From: a virus
Taxonomy: Duplodnaviria > Heunggongvirae > Uroviricota > Caudoviricetes
Reading direction: 5' to 3' (one strand)
Virus record (IMG/VR): IMGVR_UViG_2585427728_000004
DNA: 11,946 nt
Shown here piece by piece: positions 1-11,386 of the stretch. Positions within the stretch are counted from its first letter, which is position 1, and each line of letters opens with the position of its first letter. Under the pieces are notes generated by a model. That model ran no database searches and was not told the DNA's origin. It saw nothing but the letters and a program-made list of their open reading frames with translations. The translations under genes and the position numbers were made by a program.

Positions 1-1368
1 TTACTTCACGGAATATTTTGCCACGGTCGCTTTCGCGCCATGCGCTAATAAAGACAAGTACGTTTCCGTCACTCTTGCAGTAAACAAACTATTGTCTGGC
101 AAATCATCACCAAAGATCGCCTTAATCGCCAGCAATGACTGGACGCGCGCTTTCCCTTCGTCACTACTTTGTACAGCCTTCTGAATAACAGGTAACAGTG
201 GGTCACTGATTTCTATCGGATTTCCCTGTTCATCAACACCACCGACATAACGCATCCAACCCGCGACGCCCAGCGCCAGCAGATCGAACTTGCTGTCATG
301 CGCCAGATGCCAGCGAACAGAATCCAACATCCGCTGTGGCAATTTCTGGCTACCATCCATCGCAATCTGCCAGGTTCGATGACGTAACGCCGGGTTGCTA
401 TAGCGTGCAATTAATCGGTTAGCGTAATCTTGCAAATCAACGCCCTGCACTTTCAACGTCGGCGCTTGTTCCTGCAACATCAAGCCATACGCCGCATAAC
501 GATATTGTTCATCTTCCATACAGTCATTAATGTGCTGATATCCTGCAAGATACCCCAGATACGCCAGGAATGAATGACTGCCGTTGAGCATGCGCAACTT
601 CATCTCTTCATAAGGCAGCACATCGCTAACCAGTTCGGCTCCCGCTTTTTCCCATTCCGGACGTCCGGCAACAAAGTTATCTTCTATTACCCACTGGCGG
701 AAAGGTTCACAGGCAACGCCCGCAGGATCGCCCACACCGGTAAGTTGTTCGATTTTCGCCAGCGTATCCTCTGTCACTGCGGGCACAATACGGTCCACCA
801 TTGTTGATGGGAAAGTCACGTTATCTTCGATCCATTGTGCCAGTTTTACATCAACGGCTTGTGCGTAGGAAGTGACAACGTCACGCATAACATGACCGTT
901 TTCTGGCATGTTGTCACATGACATGACGGTAAATGCGGGAAGTCCTGCCGCTTTACGGCGAGCCAGCGCCTCAACAATCACCCCTGTTGCTGTTTTCGGC
1001 TGGTGGGGATTTTGCACGTCGGCAGCGACCATCGGGTGATCGAGCATTAACTGTCCGGTCGCCGGAGAGTGGAAATACCCTTTTTCGGTGATTGTCAGAG
1101 AGACAATCGCAATTTGCGGTTCACACATCGCAGCCAGCACGGTTTCTAAGCCATCTATTTGTACGTGCAAGGCTTTTTTAACGACGCCAACGACGCGAGC
1201 CGTCCACGCGTCGGCCGACATTTCCGCAACGGTATAAAGATTATCTTGCTGTTGTAAATCGGCAATTTGCTGTTCGCCGCCGATTAAGTTGACCTCATAA
1301 TATCCCCAGTCACTGAAATGTTCCGTAGCAAGAATACAGAGTGCGTATGAGCGCCTGCAGAAGAAGTG
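1..1368 (-). pseudogene. ydfI: Mannitol dehydrogenase family oxidoreductase (UxuB/YdfI-like), 5'-truncated remnant; the ORF-track ORF 1..1221 is its internal-ATG portion
   Basis: The 406-aa ORF aligns with the UxuB family from about residue 85 to the C-terminus ([45 protein letters not shown]). My hand translation of the same frame upstream of the ATG at 1221 continues the homology ([16 protein letters not shown]) up to an in-frame stop at 1369-1371 with no start codon, so the N-terminal Rossmann region is missing. Symbol is inferred from the neighbouring Qin-like prophage. Confidence 0.6.
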
Positions 1369-1930
1369 TTAACACTGTATTTAGAATAATCAGATGCTCC
1401 ACTTCCCGGAGCACCACTGGAACCACCTGAAACAAATGTCATCGAATGGGTATGTGCACCGGCTGAAGCAGCCGTACCGCTAACACTATGGGTATGCGCC
1501 CCGGTGTTATTCGTGGATTTAGTGCCGTAATCAAACGACGATGTGGTTTTCGTACCCAAATCCGTACTGGATGCGCTGGCGCTGTGGGTGTGCGATTTAA
1601 TGCCGTCCTGTTCCTGAGACAATATGGCTCGACCACTGGCGGGCTTGCCCTTAATCGTCCAGCCACGCAAATCAGGGATCACGCCTGACGGATAAGCGGC
1701 AGCAAGTTTCGGGTAGGCAGATTTGTCAAAAGTCTGCCCCTGCATCAGGGCATAACCAGACGGAACGGTATCTGATGGCCACGGGATTGGTGCGCCGACT
1801 GGGTAGCTTTCTGGTGGAAGATTTTTCGAGGTATAAACTTCTGCCCAGTCTTCCTCAAAACCATAGCCATCTCTTGAAGAACGGTAGAACAGACCTCCAT
1901 TTCTGTAATGCGCCTTCATCTGCAGGGTCC
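1338..1930 (-). pseudogene. Side tail fiber protein C-terminal fragment (Stf/gp37-like tip with GAHTHS repeats), lacking its N-terminal part; approximate boundaries
   Basis: ORF 1284..2051 contains [12 protein letters not shown]...[34 protein letters not shown] followed by three GAHTHS repeats typical of lambda Stf/T4 gp37-type fiber tips. The first ~44 codons and last ~17 codons of that ORF are out-of-frame readings of terminase and ydfI DNA respectively. Confidence 0.55.
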
Positions 1931-3339
1931 GGCAACTTCCGACTCCGGTAGCTGGCCGGATCAATTCGCTGGCTCTCCCCGTCGCTGTCACCGCGCAATG
2001 ACTGCGTGATGTTGTAACGATCAATAATCCAGCGTTCGCCACGGCTGCCATAGCCCGTTACCTGAACCACAAAACGGCGATGACGTCCCGCCTGCACATC
2101 CACTGTCGCCACAAGGAAATTAACGCCATCCGGCACACTGCGGGAAGGAACTGGCTCTGCCCGCTGCTCAAGCAATTCACTTTTTCGTTGCTCCATGCTG
2201 GCGCGGGGAAGATAAGGTAATCCCCAGTCGGTATTGATAACCGTCTTGAGTGTCTCTTCACTTCCGGTTGTCTCGTATTCCTGTTCTGCAGTAAGCAGCT
2301 TGTAAACGAGTTGCGAGAGTGTCTGATAAGCAGCTGCCGGACCCTCCATCCAGAATGACGCAATACGTGAACGCCGGGGATCACCATAACGACTGCCATC
2401 TGCATTGATGGATTCACCATCCCGTAACCAGACCCCACGTCCGTTCAGCTCGCGTTTTTGTTCAGGCAAAATCCGTCCTGAACAGGAAGGACACTGAATA
2501 TAAGCCGCCTCACTTGCCAGCACAGGATCGGCAATATCACGGAAACCAGCAACCACATCGCCGCAGGGCTGAAAATACTCACCACAGTGTGGACAGGGCC
2601 AGTACCAGCGACGGCGATCGCCACGGTTATAGAGCGACAGGATCCCCGTGGTTGGTGGAGCCTCATGCGGTGAAGTCCGTCGCCATTTCACATCCTTCAC
2701 ATCCCTGCCGGGGGAACTCTCCACCAGCGTCATACCACTGGACATAAATGTGGTGGTACGTTTTGAGGCAAGAGAGAAGGCATCCCCCTCACCATCAATA
2801 TCTTCCGGAAAACGGTCATAATCCGTCAGCGCCACGCATTTATAATCTGATGAAGACATGATATTGACTGACGGCCAGCCGATTTTCAGGTAGTTGCCAG
2901 CAAGGAATGTTCTGTCATAAACGTTGTTGTCATTTTTGTTCGGACTCAGGCGACTGACCACTTCCGGGCTGACGCGAAACGTTCTGGCGAGTCGTTTTTT
3001 GGAGTGTTCGCGGGCTTTTTCCTCCGTCATCTGAATGATCAGCATATCAGCAGGATCGCAAATCACGTTGTAAATCACCCAGCCGTCAATCAGGCCGATA
3101 GTCTTGCCGGTTCGTGCCGGGCCAACAAATATCACTGCGTCGTATTCACGCGAGGCCAGGCAGTTCATAGGCTCAATAACATACGGTGCCACCAGCGGAT
3201 CCCACGGGACTGAGTTCCCTGCCCCCATGGGCACCCGCATATACTGAGCAACGGCATCAGCAACCCGCATTCGTCTCGGTGCGCGAAGGATATAACCTGA
3301 ATCGGTTCGTGCTGCCTTTGCGGTTTCCTGATTCAGCAT
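1855..3339 (-). CDS. Phage terminase large subunit (lambda GpA family), C-terminally truncated and fused into tail-fiber DNA; probably non-functional
   Basis: 494-aa ORF with Walker-A-like GPARTGKT, the CPHCGE motif and a WIIDRYNI segment matching the lambda gpA nuclease-domain region. Lambda gpA is about 640 aa; homology ends near residue 465 and the frame then runs through tail-fiber sequence to a stop. The start ATG overlaps the upstream stop (TAATG). Confidence 0.75.
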
Positions 3340-5530: not shown

Positions 5531-5735
5531 TCATTTTCACTTTCTTAAATCTAACGACAGATGGCTAACATTTAAGTATTGTGAAATATTATCAAATGTA
5601 ATCATCATTGATTTACAAAAGATACATTTTGCCCCGAAAGGATTTCTGTCAGAAACATCAAAAGATGATGTTCTATACTGAGAACCATGGCAACACGGGC
5701 ATCTAAAGTGAATATGGTTTGTAATATTTTCTACC

Positions 5736-5948
5736 TCAAAGTGCCACTACATGAACAGCTGCAGGGCCTTTAGGTCCGTTCTCAATACCAAATTCGACTT
5801 CCTGATTCTCAGTTAACGTTTTGAAATCGTTGCTCTGAATAGCTGAGAAATGCACAAACACATCTTTGCTACCATCTTTCGGCGTGATGAAACCAAAACC
5901 TTTTTCAGGGTTAAACCATTTCACTAAACCAGTCATTTTGTTAGACAT
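5736..5948 (-). CDS. cspI: Cold shock protein CspA family (70 aa), CspI-like
   Basis: [70 protein letters not shown] carries the RNP1/RNP2 motifs (KGFGFI, VFVHF) of cold shock proteins; AAGG Shine-Dalgarno and a long AT-rich leader lie upstream. Confidence 0.9.
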
Positions 5949-6311
5949 CATTATTACCTTTTGAAGAAGTTAGCCCTTGGGCAGAATGGTCCGAAAAAAA
6001 ATATCAGAAAGAAAAACCAACAAGGAAATCTCAAGAGGTACAAATAATAAAATTATAACAATGACTGCTTCAGATAATTTTGTAACAAACCAGAACACCA
6101 TTAACGCATGATTAACCAACCATAGCAAGGATTACTTTTGTAAAGAAAAACACACGAATGAAACAATAGCTTTATTTATTAATAAAACGTGTCATTCTGT
6201 CTAATGACCTTTTATCTTACCCTTAAGATTTCAAGGATTTTGACTCATGGAAGAGTCCTTTTTATTTAAATTTCACATTCAGCGCTAAAAATAATCCGAT
6301 TTAATATTAAT

Positions 6312-7334
<1,023 letters not shown>

Positions 7335-7338
<4 letters not shown>

Positions 7339-7650: not shown

Positions 7651-7866
7651 TTACTCTCCTCTCGCAGCCTTACGCCTGTCTTCTTTAATCTTGAAATAAA
7701 GATTTGTCAGATACGTCAGCATGCCAAATACCAGACTACCCAATACACCTATTGCCGCCCACTGTGAGGGCGTGACTTTATCGAGCAACTGTAAAAACCA
7801 GTAGCCAGCACTGCCTGCAGAGGTGCTGTAGGCGATGCCCGTTGTTAACTTATCCATGGATTTCAT
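7651..7866 (-). CDS. essQ: Pinholin, phage 21 S21-like class II holin with dual-start motif (71 aa)
   Basis: [71 protein letters not shown] has two transmembrane segments and a charged C-terminus; GGAGGTGA Shine-Dalgarno upstream. The ORF-track extension to 7950 is read-through. Confidence 0.85.
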
Positions 7867-7954
7867 AGCCTCACCTCCGCAGATAACGGATGGTGTACAC
7901 GGTTTGGTTCGAAGAAGGAAAGAAGTTACATTAGCGTAAGGCCCGAACATCTAT

Positions 7955-7987
7955 TCAAAAAGAAAAACGCCAGCAATTATTCTGGCG
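7955..7987 (-). terminator. Candidate intrinsic terminator between the AraC-family gene and the holin
   Basis: Plus strand aaaaaCGCCAGcaattattCTGGCG; on the minus strand CGCCAG-aauaauug-CUGGCG is followed by UUUUUCUUUUU. Confidence 0.45.
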
Positions 7988-8056
7988 TAGCTAAAAATAT
8001 CGTATAATCTTACACTTCAAAAAATAACTTTATAAAATACCATCACATCATATCTT

Positions 8057-8770
8057 CTAAGAAAATCTTGATAAATATTGGTGCGGAGGCACACCAAAAT
8101 ATCCTCTAAAAACACTTACAAAATATGATGCATTGTCATACCCGCATATTCCCGCCACCTTGCCGACAGTATGGTTACTGTAGATCAATAATCTTTGCGC
8201 CATCATCATTCGTTCTTCAAGAATTAATTTACTAAACGATAATCCTTCGTCTTTTAATTTTCTTTTTAACAAACTCTCGCTCATATATAATCTTGAAGAT
8301 ATATCACAAAGTCTCCATGACGCAGAGATATCCGAGTGAATAATAGCCTTAACTTTACAACCTAAGCTATTAAGACTTCCGAACAAAAAACTTTGCACTA
8401 TTTTCTCTGAAGATAAGACAGCAAGACATGCAAGTGATATTTGATTTCTAACTACATCCACGGTTTTGCTATCACAATTCAAGCATGCAACCAAGTTCTT
8501 TAACAATGAAAAATCTTCACATTCTACTATCAAGTATGACGGATAAAACCTTCTTACAGAAAAAGGTGAGAGTGTGTAGTTTTTAAAGAAATCATTAACT
8601 GTTTTCTCCTCAACATCTACGATCATTAGATGATCTGTATTTGACGAAAAAAGATCTTTTAAATTGTATTCAATGAGGACAGCATTTCCTTTTTTAAACA
8701 AAATATCTTCTTTACCAATTCGGACACCAAACGAGTTCAACACCAAAATGATAGAACATATGTATGGCAT
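8057..8770 (-). CDS. AraC/XylS-family transcriptional regulator (AppY/Rns-like size class, 237 aa from the ATG at 8770)
   Basis: C-terminal double HTH typical of AraC family (LLKRKLKDEGLSFSKLILEERMMMAQRLL...VGKVAGICGYDNASYFVSVFRGYFGVPPHQY). AGGTGG Shine-Dalgarno 5 nt before the ATG at 8770; the ORF-track start at 8779 is GTG. The gene and its ~400-bp upstream region are visibly AT-rich. Confidence 0.85.
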   Translation of the reverse strand: MPYICSIILVLNSFGVRIGKEDILFKKGNAVLIEYNLKDLFSSNTDHLMIVDVEEKTVNDFFKNYTLSPFSVRRFYPSYLIVECEDFSLLKNLVACLNCDSKTVDVVRNQISLACLAVLSSEKIVQSFLFGSLNSLGCKVKAIIHSDISASWRLCDISSRLYMSESLLKRKLKDEGLSFSKLILEERMMMAQRLLIYSNHTVGKVAGICGYDNASYFVSVFRGYFGVPPHQYLSRFS

Positions 8771-9176
8771 ATTATCCACCTGATATCATTGGGGTTACAC
8801 CAGGTAAGTATAGGTGGAAAATCAATATTCGCCAGTTCAACAATAAGGAAAATCTCATTGCATCACAACTATAAAACCATGTGTTTAACTCACAAAAAAC
8901 AAATCATTAAACTAATCTGTTATATTATAATAGCTGCGTGCAATAATAATATTATATGCTCTTAATATTCACTTGAAATATCTTCATATAAAAACAGATT
9001 GAATAAAATCTTTTGGGGCTGGTATGTTTACCAACATTAAATTGCATCTCAATGTTTTCTTTAGCGTGAACAGGATTTTTATAAAAACTGACACTATGAG
9101 CATCATAGCGTAGTTTTTACGATTGTAAATATCCTGCATACAGGAACTCATCACTTTCAGATGATATCGCATACAG
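8771..9176 (-). promoter_or_regulatory. AT-rich leader/promoter region of the AraC-family gene; candidate nucleoid-protein (H-NS-type) silencing target
   Basis: About 400 bp of very AT-rich non-coding DNA between two minus-strand genes. The only ORF here (8984..9172) is low-complexity with no ribosome-binding site. No specific promoter hexamers assigned. Confidence 0.3.
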
Positions 9177-10136
9177 TTAATTCACCATCAGTCTTAGAGC
9201 CAGTTCTTCCGGATAGGGATCGAAGTAGTTCTGTGTAAGCAAGTAATCATTAGGATACTCACCCAGATAATGCTTCAGCAGAGTCAACGGCGCAAGAAGA
9301 GGCAATGTGCCAAAGCGATAGTTAAGTATAACCTCGCTCAACTCTTTACGCTGGCGTGTACTTAAGTAATTACTAAAATACCCCTGTATATGCATCAGCA
9401 CATTCGTGTGATTTTTACGTGATGCTGGTTTTCTGAGAATCGCCATCAGATTATCACGATACACCTCAAAGTATGATTCAAGGTCCGCCCACTCGTGTAT
9501 TGCAGCCACAAATGGTCCCATATCTTTATAGCCTGCCTGGCTATGCGCCAACAACTGAAGCTTATAACGACTATGAAAAGCTAATAACTCTCTTCTTGAT
9601 AATTTCTCCTTGTAAAGGTGATTGAGCTCATGCAAAGCAAAAACTCTTTCAATAAAATTCTCACGAAGCACTGGATCATGTAATCGCCCATCCTCTTCAA
9701 CCGGTAGCCAGGAAAACTTTTCCATCAAAGTGCTCGTAAATAGTCCCACTCCATCTTTACGACCTCGATTACCATTTTCATCATAGACACGCACGCGCTC
9801 CATGCCACAGCTGGGAGATTTAGCACAAACCACAAACCCCGATACATCCTTTAATTTGTCCATATAAGAACGACTAAACTCTGTCATTCTCTCTGTCACA
9901 TCCTCATTCTGGTCGTGGCTGAAACACATCCGTATATTTCCTTGCTTCGAGCGCACAAGTCGTAGAGCAGGACGCGGAACTGGCAGCCCTATAGCCATTT
10001 CCGGACATACTGGTCTGAATGTTACCCATTCCACTAATTTGTCCATTAAAAAGTCATCTCTTTTGTGACCACCATCAAAACGAACAGCAGAACCGCCCAA
10101 ACAACCGCTGATCCCAATCACAGGTTTTTTTATCAT
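9177..10136 (-). CDS. DUF523/DUF1722 fusion protein (TudS-like putative [4Fe-4S] thionucleobase desulfidase with YbgA-like domain)
   Basis: N-terminal MIKKPVIGISGCLGGSAVRFDGGHKRD with three spaced cysteines (GISGC, PVCPE, SPSCG) as in DUF523/TudS; the C-terminal half resembles DUF1722 (YbgA). Strong GGGGGAGGAA Shine-Dalgarno 4 nt upstream of the ATG. Confidence 0.8.
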   Translation of the reverse strand: MIKKPVIGISGCLGGSAVRFDGGHKRDDFLMDKLVEWVTFRPVCPEMAIGLPVPRPALRLVRSKQGNIRMCFSHDQNEDVTERMTEFSRSYMDKLKDVSGFVVCAKSPSCGMERVRVYDENGNRGRKDGVGLFTSTLMEKFSWLPVEEDGRLHDPVLRENFIERVFALHELNHLYKEKLSRRELLAFHSRYKLQLLAHSQAGYKDMGPFVAAIHEWADLESYFEVYRDNLMAILRKPASRKNHTNVLMHIQGYFSNYLSTRQRKELSEVILNYRFGTLPLLAPLTLLKHYLGEYPNDYLLTQNYFDPYPEELALRLMVN

Positions 10137-10328
10137 TTCCTCCCCCTTGACTAATTCATTAACACATAAACTTTGTAGTGCACGGACTAAATTGCCTTTC
10201 TGGCTTCATCACTGACAATTTTTCTGTTATTGACTATTCCTAATATAGTAGGAAAGTTCTTTAAGTGATCGGTCGTACTCATCTATCTTTCATACTTACT
10301 CTCAACTATCAAAAGTACAGGATTTATT
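10137..10328. promoter_or_regulatory. Divergent intergenic region between the DUF523/DUF1722 gene and the lipocalin gene; presumed to hold both promoters
   Basis: 192-bp gap between divergently oriented starts; contains TTGACT- and TATAGT-like hexamers but no confident -35/-10 pairing by eye. Confidence 0.3.
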
Positions 10329-10853
10329 ATGAAGTTATGGCCTGTGTTGACTGGCATTGCACTCTCTTTCACTCTTATAGCATGTAAGGCCCCGACACCA
10401 CCTAAAGGTGTGCAGCCGATTACAAATTTTGACGCCAACCGCTACCTCGGAAAATGGTATGAAATAGCTCGCCTCGAGAACTGGTTCGAACGTGGTCTGG
10501 AACAGGTCAGCGCTACTTATGAAAAACGGAACGACGGAGGGATTCGCGTACTTAACCGTGGATACGATCCAACGAAAAACAAATGGAGCGAGAGCGAAGG
10601 TAAAGCATACTTTACTGGAGATACTAAAACTGCAGCGTTGAAAGTTTCGTTTTTTGGCCCCTTCTATGGTGGCTATAATGTAATCAAACTGGATGATGAG
10701 TATAAGTATGCTCTTGTCAGTGGTCCGAACAGAGAATACCTATGGATTCTGGCAAGGACCCAAACTATTCCAGATAATGTAAAAGCAGACTATGTGCGTA
10801 CCGCTCAAAAGTTGGGATTCAATGTCAATGAACTATTATGGGTTAAACAATAA
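10329..10853 (+). CDS. Bacterial lipocalin Blc-like outer-membrane lipoprotein (174 aa)
   Basis: Signal peptide with LIAC lipobox (MKLWPVLTGIALSFTLIAC), then Blc motifs NFDANRYLGKWYEIARLENWFERGLEQVSATY and GKAYFTGDTKTAALKVSFFGPFYGGYNVIKLD...YLWILARTQ. AGGA Shine-Dalgarno upstream. Only plus-strand gene in the window. Confidence 0.85.
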   Translation: MKLWPVLTGIALSFTLIACKAPTPPKGVQPITNFDANRYLGKWYEIARLENWFERGLEQVSATYEKRNDGGIRVLNRGYDPTKNKWSESEGKAYFTGDTKTAALKVSFFGPFYGGYNVIKLDDEYKYALVSGPNREYLWILARTQTIPDNVKADYVRTAQKLGFNVNELLWVKQ

Positions 10854-10881
10854 AATCCCCACCCGAAATGATACTTATTAG

Positions 10882-10908
10882 AAAAAAACCAGCCTTTGGG
10901 GAGGCTGG
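10882..10908 (-). terminator. Intrinsic terminator ~100 nt downstream of the Q gene (tR'-like candidate)
   Basis: Plus strand gaaaaaaaCCAGCCTttggggAGGCTGG; on the minus strand a 7-bp GC-rich stem with 6-nt loop is followed by UUUUUUUU. No T-run follows on the plus strand, so it is unidirectional. Confidence 0.5.
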
Positions 10909-11008
10909 CTAAATCAGGAAACAAGCTGTTATATGATAATAACTACGTTGCGATTCCAACATTTAAAATGTTAGACTAATGAAAATCAGACAGCAACTTT
11001 TCCTTTAA

Positions 11009-11386
11009 TTATTTCGAACAATCAGCATCCATCTCCAATCGGAGATCCAACACCATCAGCATGCCCTCCACTACGCCCTCAGCTTTCTGGAGCATCCTGC
11101 CAACCCAACAATCAGATCGCCCATGCTTACGTGCAAGCGCCATAAAAGTCATGCCGCCGACATAATAGTCCACCAATAAATCATGTAAATCGCTGTTGTT
11201 TTTTTTCAGGCGAGCCATACATTCACAAATGATCATCGCGTCATCGTCACAGCATTGCGGACGAGATCTTACTTTTGAAGGAATTAATCCCTTAAAACCG
11301 GCGGCAATGGACGACCAGGTCACATCTTCATGATTATTAGCCGCCCATGCCCCCCAACGCTCAAGAACCATCTGAATATCACGCAT
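11009..11386 (-). CDS. Late-gene antitermination protein Q (short QuuD/phage-82-type, ~125 aa)
   Basis: [24 protein letters not shown]...[18 protein letters not shown]... matches the short Q antiterminator family with its cysteine cluster; GGAG Shine-Dalgarno 9 nt before the ATG at 11386. The ORF-track start at 11401 is TTG. Confidence 0.75.

Follow-up and report, generated by a model that had tools for sequence, protein, structure and literature searches.

The DNA analyzed here (the window, 11,946 nucleotides of the virus record IMGVR_UViG_2585427728_000004) is a Qin-type defective E. coli prophage adjoining ydfI, with all late-region genes on the minus strand. Many RefSeq genomes with near-identical DNA carry the same annotation. 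Following the direction of late transcription, these features were located:

High-coordinate end, minus strand: ydfU, cut off by the window end
11009..11386, minus strand: antiterminator Q, 125 aa, intact (PF06530, 8e-51)
10880..10910, minus strand: Q-proximal terminator, AGCCAGCCTCCCCAAAGGCTGG followed by T7 (terminator at 10910-10887)
10329..10853, plus (opposite) strand: lipocalin (Blc-like) gene, cargo between Q and the PR' homolog
9177..10136, minus strand: YbgA-family gene (2-thiouracil desulfurase and DUF1722 domains), cargo between Q and the PR' homolog
9102..9129, minus strand: homolog of PR', the late promoter in the Q933W/QuuD family, with -35 TTTACA (9129-9124), 16-nt spacer ATCGTAAAAACTACGC and -10 TATGAT (9107-9102)
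9088..9098, minus strand: start-site region CATAGTGTCAG, with AGTG at +1 and the -10-like hexamer CATAGT (A2/T6)
8057..8770, minus strand: AraC-family regulator, 237 aa, between the PR' homolog and the pre-holin terminator
8003..8008, plus strand: TATAAT hexamer
7957..7988, minus strand: pre-holin element of intrinsic-terminator type (arms, loop and U-tract)
7651..7866, minus strand: class II (phage 21 S-type) holin with dual start MKSM (PF04971, 2.3e-34, and translation)
3' of the holin, minus strand: ydfR, lysozyme, Rz, and cspI with a cspA-type thermoregulator
Beyond cspI: Nu1-like gene, truncated terminase fused to a tail-fibre fragment, and host ydfI

With its head and tail genes deleted, the window represents a cryptic remnant. 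A terminase large-subunit ORF (494 aa) overlaps an ORF for a tail-collar or tail-fibre fragment (1284-3339, minus), followed by ydfI at 1-1221. No tRNAs were found in the window, and the only Rfam match at the gathering threshold over its whole length was the cspA thermoregulator upstream of cspI, which lies inside the prophage late region (5690-6095, minus; 111 bits, E 2.8e-28). When matches with E<=1 were admitted for 7800-11100, a single sub-threshold match fell on the Q-proximal terminator, and the pre-holin hairpin was unmatched in both searches. The lysozyme gene rrrQ (6805-7338, minus) carries a 1-nt deletion at ~7155 relative to strain Combat13F7, which produces two ORFs (6806-7195 and 7138-7338). 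The Q gene of Combat13F7 contains an extra T at window position 11198, and Q of the window is intact.

The holin is the first gene shielded by the pre-holin terminator. The original prediction recognized this holin gene correctly and called it essQ; identical RefSeq genomes annotate it as essD, a matter of naming only. Its canonical dual start (MKSM), with the ribosome-binding site GGAGGTGAGG, is at 7866. An in-frame ATG just past the terminator (7950-7948, minus) would lengthen the ORF to 99 aa, and the IdasGreatGrand holin is annotated from an upstream ATG of this type. The Lambda_2G7a type is devoid of the 23-nt segment that holds this ATG, which is probably spurious.

On the minus strand, the pre-holin hairpin consists of a 5' arm ACGCCAG (7988-7982), an 8-nt loop AATAATTG (7981-7974), a 3' arm CTGGCGT (7973-7967) and a tail TTTTCTTTTT (7966-7957). 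The corresponding RNA reads ACGCCAG-AAUAAUUG-CUGGCGU followed by UUUUCUUUUU, where nine of the ten U-tract positions are U. The stem comprises seven Watson-Crick pairs (five G-C) with a dG of -11.3 kcal/mol, compared to -12.0 for the DLP12 hairpin, -12.6 for Stx hp1 and -14.5 for Stx tR' (all kcal/mol). The hairpin lies 68 nt past the TAG that ends the AraC-family gene (8059-8057), points in the same direction as that gene and is followed 90 nt downstream by the holin ATG (7866-7864). Because the plus-strand version is followed by AGCTAAAAAT, the element is one-directional. Overall, the hairpin presents a G+C-rich stem with a short loop, a U-tract on the transcribed strand only and a position downstream of a co-directional gene, as expected for an intrinsic terminator.

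A strict scan, which accepted only mismatch-free stems of 7 bp or longer containing 5 or more G-C pairs, loops of 3-8 nt and a following 10 nt with 8 or more T, returned exactly two matches in the window, the pre-holin hairpin and a second at 10908, both on the gene-sense minus strand, against a mean of 0.003 expected from 300 dinucleotide-preserving shuffles. A looser terminator scan discriminated less (17 in the window versus 11.2 +/- 3.3 expected). Folding of 7940-8060 revealed no significant extra structure (z -1.44), and hence no sign of an antiterminator or riboswitch. A further terminator-like match at 8097-8078 was rejected, because it falls inside the coding part of the AraC gene and relatives do not keep its stem intact. 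The original prediction of a CGCCAG-loop-CUGGCG hairpin with a U-tract, on the minus strand between the AraC-family gene and the holin, was thus reproduced exactly. Its proposal that a terminator separates upstream transcription from the lysis cassette was borne out by anatomy, statistics and the conservation described below, which together support a genuine element of intrinsic-terminator type at this position, as far as sequence analysis can tell.

The AraC-to-holin junction (at least 80% of it) was found in about 1014 of 5426 complete E. coli genomes, whose copies fall into identity classes of >=99%, ~80% and ~73%. It is also present in viable phages, namely the Lambda_2G7a / 1H12 / Lambda_ev group and IdasGreatGrand; the search for carriers of the Lambda_2G7a-type module returned clinical and environmental isolates only. 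When the window was compared to the Lambda_2G7a type, identity was 93.9% for the Q gene, 56% from the ybgA stop to PR', 54.5% from PR' +9 to the AraC ATG, 79.8% for the AraC gene, 63.8% from the AraC stop to the hairpin and 71% from the U-tract to the holin ATG, and the hairpin plus U-tract was identical at 30 of 32 positions. Hairpin variants were surveyed in 80 IMG/VR loci retrieved by AraC protein. The stem is unaltered in 66 of these, which vary at one loop base only (T or C), and two single loci carry C-to-U stem changes that each retain a G.U pair. A 1-nt deletion in the 3' arm, which weakens dG to -7.3 kcal/mol, was observed in the other 12 loci and may represent one lineage. In eight of these 12, Q, PR', AraC and holin are all intact, so full hairpin strength is not indispensable.

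As judged from these comparisons, the pre-holin element is under constraint. No compensatory double changes in the stem were found among the relatives compared, so selection at the RNA level is inseparable from simple sequence conservation, and the near-invariance of the stem precluded covariation analysis. Among GTDB species representatives, the AraC gene was matched by one E. coli-like contig that wrongly bears the label of a Nanosynbacter MAG and by one unrelated sequence. The cargo/terminator module therefore appears confined to E. coli-like DNA, which leaves no distant orthologs for comparison. IS elements have struck the Q-to-holin module repeatedly: an IS3 is inserted in the holin ribosome-binding site (locus L041), an IS1-associated deletion extends from PR' +20 to just beyond the terminator (L148), an IS1 lies inside the AraC gene (L004), and another IS1 takes the place of Q (L005).

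Comparison of the window Q-to-holin interval with DLP12/D2 yielded chance-level short matches; the PR' motif emerged through the Stx-phage comparison, in which the region of Stx2 phage I downstream of Q was aligned to the window. The Stx sequence TTTACGATCGTAAAAA matches the window at 15 of 16 positions at 9129-9114, between ybgA and the AraC gene and away from Q. The pattern TTTACRATCGTAAAAA has this PR' homolog as its single match in the window (0.03 expected). With a 10/12 sigma-70 match (TTTACA-16-TATGAT), the homolog is one of three 10/12 sites and received the top score in the promoter scan of the window. A promoter-like site within Q (11189-11162, 10/12) was rejected because it lies in conserved coding sequence and its spacer is unlike that of the family PR'. 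The homolog aligns gap-free with the promoters of Stx phages and of DLP12/D2/ev243, and its 28 nt are identical at 26 positions across subfamilies, in surroundings of 54-56% identity.

The predicted start site is ~9095. The start-site hexamers of the three layouts (TATAGT, CAGAGT and AAGAGT) occupy the same register, with a conserved AGTG at +1, and the A2/T6 hexamer CATAGT is a candidate sigma-dependent pause element for Q loading. When applied to Sakai Sp5, the motif (there TTTACG-N16-TATCAT) puts the start 258 nt ahead of the U-run of tR', and dRNA-seq and Term-seq gave this same length for StxS, the PR' transcript (Sy et al., PMC7547250). Late promoters of this type are constitutively active in Stx-phage lysogens. 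The PR' motif of DLP12, D2 and ev243 precedes the holin gene essD by ~200 nt and is separated from Q by nmpC; in D2 and ev243, which are viable, no other match to the motif was found. A published DLP12 "regulatory region" amplicon (start at L010 4754, span -121 to +650) would include this homolog and fixes no start site. If the promoter at 9129-9102 is the Q-loading late promoter, the annotation of QuuD-type prophages would also be affected, as PR' could not be taken to adjoin Q.

The -35 region of PR' also falls within a 14-bp palindrome, which is perfect in Stx phages (TTTACGATCGTAAA, L096 5423-5436) and in DLP12 (TTTACGTACGTAAA, L010 5196-5209) and one base off perfect in the window (TTTACAATCGTAAA, 9129-9116). 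Such a palindrome could be bound by a protein and might represent the Q-binding element of this family.

Q itself belongs to the Q21 structural family (PDB 6P18, E 5e-9) and shares 79-83% amino-acid identity with 933W-type Stx-phage Q and ~86% with DLP12-type (ev243) Q. Together with the preceding ~130 nt, the Q-proximal terminator (10910-10887) is the homolog of tR' and the 3' portion of the Stx late leader: the alignment is collinear from the Q stop codon onward, 12 nt match exactly (GCCAGCCTCCCC), and TAACAGC occurs in both ~25 nt upstream. The Q-proximal terminator is thus the sequence homolog of Stx tR' and the StxS 3' end (GCCAGCCTCCCCCAGTGGCTGGC plus T-run), to which the pre-holin hairpin is unrelated in sequence. 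No PR' motif was found upstream of the Q-proximal terminator, where homology to the Stx leader starts at the Q stop, downstream of the Stx PR' position. The ~75 nt that end in this terminator (10955-10880, minus) align with StxS_S, a 74-nt Hfq-binding sRNA of Stx phages, including TAACAGC and the GCCAGCCTCCCC stem; this StxS_S-like stretch lies directly 3' of the Q stop codon, without PR' upstream. A motif ATATAACAG(A) occurs both in the AraC leader (8925-8916) and at 10934-10926 (minus), ~75 nt past the Q stop. It is also found ~75 nt past the Q stop in DLP12 (L010 ~2409-2417), with a Stx equivalent, GTAACAGC, inside StxS, and may be a shared leader remnant.

A scan of IMG/VR with the PR' motif recovered at least 120 loci, and the matches listed comprised 105 loci of other types and 15 of window type. 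Among the matches listed, hp1 (a hairpin followed by a T-run, usually about 25 nt after the start in other PR' phages) was present no more than 75 nt from the start in 93 of the 105 and in none of the 15. Of the 12 remaining loci of other types among these matches, the inspected ones keep a degraded hp1. Window-type sequences are unrelated to the others beyond about +30. When the stretch between PR' and the holin was scanned under relaxed criteria in three diverged relatives, the pre-holin hairpin was the only conserved compact G+C-rich hairpin with a long U-tract. Given that hp1 is absent and PR' lies at 9129-9102, polymerase leaving PR' would probably meet the pre-holin hairpin as its first strong conserved terminator.

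Only one further conserved hairpin with U's behind it was found in the PR'-to-holin interval, a weak structure rich in A/U and G.U pairs at 8781-8749 (minus). In this structure, the AraC ribosome-binding site (GGUGGA) and start-codon region are paired with downstream codons and followed by UUUUGGUG (UUUU). It is kept in the Lambda_2G7a-type and IdasGreatGrand relatives (dG about -10 to -11.5) and could limit AraC translation or attenuate transcription. The ~325-nt untranslated leader could also permit Rho-dependent termination before the AraC gene.

A terminator at most 170 nt upstream of an S21-type holin was observed in 13 of 14 loci with cargo between PR' and the holin, among the matches listed. 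The hairpins behind other cargo are unrelated in sequence, for example GGCCAC-GTCAG-GTGGCC, which follows a DNA methyltransferase, and, from a different class, GCCCGC-TTTT-GCGGGT. As a kind of element, the pre-holin terminator is therefore ordinary, recurring behind unrelated cargo with unrelated hairpins; the window family is set apart by its missing hp1 and by where its regulator gene lies. In a PR' class with degraded hp1 (AAACCCGCCGCTGAGCGG plus T7; IMG/VR loci L135 and L171), a 75-aa ORF and a 350-aa DNA methyltransferase precede the first strong terminator, which lies 43 nt upstream of the holin. In this class, too, genes may be transcribed from PR' when Q is absent.

The regulator shows YdeO/GadX similarity across its full length, with Pfam HTH_18 and HTH_AraC domains. 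Its NCBIfam YdeO match (2.9e-32) is below the curated cut-off, and its identity is taken no further than YdeO/GadX-like. The gene may have a promoter of its own, for which a candidate lies at 8895-8868 (9/12). A DNA search of O157 returned only a distant AraC gene at ~313 kb, possibly patE, which has other surroundings and matches with 73% identity along 220 nt. In E. coli HS, by comparison, the AraC gene is 99.4% identical to that of the window. No paper was found that mentions the protein accessions of the cargo genes.

Following these observations, we propose that the pre-holin hairpin is a Rho-independent terminator that probably serves as the working tR' of this prophage family and as the final, sole strong obstacle that polymerase from the late promoter meets ahead of the lysis genes. 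RNA polymerase would start at the PR' homolog (9129-9102, start ~9095) and transcribe a ~325-nt leader and then the gene for the AraC/YdeO-like regulator. In the absence of Q, transcription would stop in the U-tract at ~7960, producing a predicted mRNA of ~1.14 kb and leaving the holin, 90 nt downstream, silent. When present, Q would load on polymerase paused just past PR'. Since Q-family proteins sterically block hairpin formation in the RNA exit channel (10.1101/651190), the Q-modified polymerase, with no terminator hairpin formed there, would read through into holin, ydfR, lysozyme and Rz. We infer promoter activity, Q loading at the PR' homolog, termination and read-through from sequence, as we do the expression of the regulator from PR' as opposed to a private promoter alone.

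As would be expected of a tR', the hairpin precedes the holin with an intact 125-aa Q in the same prophage, and a late promoter with Q-loading and pause elements, recognized by homology only, lies 1.1 kb upstream (motif 9129-9088). The viable Lambda_2G7a-type phages and IdasGreatGrand carry the same Q-blc-ybgA-PR'-AraC-terminator-holin block, which means that their late genes must be reached through the pre-holin terminator. In one of its two alternatives, the original prediction had called the hairpin the true tR', which probably applies to its function but not to its ancestry, as the homolog of Stx tR' is the Q-proximal terminator. The same alternative placed the cargo genes outside the late operon. 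With a single PR' homolog upstream of the AraC gene the cargo splits, such that blc and ybgA lie outside, between Q and PR', and the AraC gene lies inside the PR'-terminator unit. For the same reason, a tR' and an insulator of cargo transcription, originally offered as alternatives, are not exclusive; the hairpin most likely works as tR' and as the 3' end of the AraC mRNA.

The main rival to this reading, which we regard as unlikely, holds that the late start adjoins Q with its first stop at 10910-10887, and that the pre-holin hairpin is a moron terminator only, ending the cargo mRNA and insulating the lysis genes. The site at 9129-9102 would then be the AraC gene's own promoter or a relic without Q loading, and Q-modified polymerase arriving from upstream would read through the hairpin. 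This arrangement would agree with the textbook layout, in which PR' directly follows Q, and with the homology of the Q-proximal terminator and its leader to the experimentally mapped Stx tR'. A weak promoter-like sequence (TTGCTG-17-TAACAT) is also available between the Q stop and the Q-proximal terminator, and related phages that retain a promoter-proximal terminator frequently have a pre-holin terminator behind their cargo as well. Conversely, the Q-proximal terminator is preceded by Stx-leader homology that begins too late to include PR', the viable DLP12-type phages, with a closely related Q, have their only PR' homolog beside the holin instead of Q, and the stretch from promoter to AGTG (9129-9092) has been conserved within otherwise diverged DNA.

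Three further explanations fare considerably worse. It is highly unlikely that the inverted repeat is no terminator and has been kept as a DNA-level site (an operator, or a recombination or module boundary) or by recent common descent. An invariant stem without compensatory pairs would fit such a site, as would its location at a module junction, where homology to phages with different cargo is limited to ~20-30 nt ahead of the holin ATG. However, the U-tract is conserved along with the stem, on the sense strand only; both single-locus stem substitutions keep RNA pairing through G.U, which would be mismatches in DNA; and the unrelated hairpins with U-tracts at the same position behind other cargo indicate convergent function.

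An antisense RNA into the AraC 3' end, driven by a perfect plus-strand TATAAT, had also been suggested. The hexamer exists, 10 nt from the position originally given (8003-8008; 7993-7998 reads AAAAAT), in A+T-rich DNA, and a TAnAAT-like hexamer is kept in most relatives. However, the -35 at 17-bp spacing is TTCTGG (2/6), a TG extension is missing, the promoter scan does not report the site, the hexamer varies among relatives (TATAAT, TACAAT, TAAAAT and TACATT), and the window contains nine copies of TATAAT, which together make such a promoter very improbable.

Finally, the proposal of a pR' with Q-binding and pause elements in 7988-8056, with the hairpin as its immediate tR' and all cargo outside the late operon, can be virtually dismissed: the 68-nt spacer is just long enough and a 9/12 promoter-like site (TTATCA-16-TATGAT) exists at 8074-8047 (minus), but the subfamilies agree at only 64% of spacer positions despite ~94% identity in Q, the family PR' motif is unmatched there, its single homolog being at 9129-9102, an 8-nt indel in relatives alters the hexamer spacing of the 8074-8047 site, and the -35 of that site lies within the AraC coding sequence.

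Returning to the hairpin as the working tR', we tentatively suggest that this prophage family may have lost its PR'-proximal terminator and put an AraC/YdeO-like gene in the PR'-to-terminator unit, such that the late promoter would express a host-directed factor in lysogens and a single terminator would both end its mRNA and gate lysis. If true, an always-on late promoter would make a YdeO/GadX-type regulator during lysogeny, with one hairpin between that transcription and the holin, and the StxS idea (that a prematurely terminated late transcript is functional in the lysogen) would be extended from a small RNA to a regulator protein. Given the number of complete E. coli genomes that carry the junction, consequences for host regulation or spontaneous lysis, if any, would be felt in many strains.

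The proposed arrangement resembles the Q-dependent late switch of lambdoid phages (lambda 6S RNA and its equivalents in phages 21 and 82), in which a constitutive late promoter, PR', with a sigma-dependent pause is followed by tR' (10.1101/651190). The shared elements are a Q gene, a late promoter with a -10-like element at the start and an intrinsic terminator before the lysis genes, read through by Q-modified polymerase (10.1101/651190; by homology on the window side). In contrast, the window contains about 1.8 kb of cargo (blc and ybgA) between Q and PR', and its promoter-to-terminator unit spans ~1.14 kb with a regulator gene, whereas known units are short non-coding RNAs of roughly 50-260 nt. 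As a YdeO/GadX-like AraC-family regulator on a lambdoid prophage, the window protein can also be likened, in kind, to PsrA, PsrB, PatE and AppY, the prophage-borne AraC-like regulators of E. coli (PMC10877973, PMC10057817); the only O157 match is distant and in another context.

The PR'-StxS-tR' unit of Stx phages (Sakai Sp5/Sp15; PMC7547250) has a homologous Q and a promoter of the same register (TTTACG-N16-TATCAT, compared to TTTACA-N16-TATGAT in the window) with AGTG at +1. There, the product of early termination from the late promoter is used by the lysogen (PMC7547250), as is predicted for the window. However, Stx PR' overlaps the Q end and is followed by hp1 at +24 and tR' at +258, with the cargo (stx) after tR', whereas the window lacks hp1, has its tR' homolog beside Q with no PR' there, and is predicted to yield a regulator mRNA instead of an sRNA on termination. 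The DLP12 / D2 / ev243 type (quuD, nmpC, essD) is closer to the window in Q, in having cargo between Q and PR', and in placing PR' and a terminator just upstream of an S21-type holin. Its terminator (AAACCCGC-CGTCGA-GCGGGTTT) differs in lying ~25 nt after PR' with no gene between, and is unrelated in sequence to the window hairpin.

Morons are reportedly promoter-gene-terminator insertions in lambdoid phages, as said to have been described by Juhala et al. and Hendrix et al. in 2000. Similarly, the window has an extra gene between conserved phage modules that ends in a factor-independent terminator, and its homology with phages of other cargo breaks ~20-30 nt upstream of the holin ATG. The difference lies in the upstream promoter, which is a homolog of the phage's late promoter and not clearly private; a 9/12 candidate lies at 8895-8868. 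The three layouts compare as follows:

Stx phages: Q, PR', hp1, leader, tR', cargo, S
DLP12 type: Q, nmpC (opposite strand), PR', hp1, S
Window type: Q, leader fragment and tR' homolog, blc (opposite strand), ybgA, PR', AraC, terminator, S
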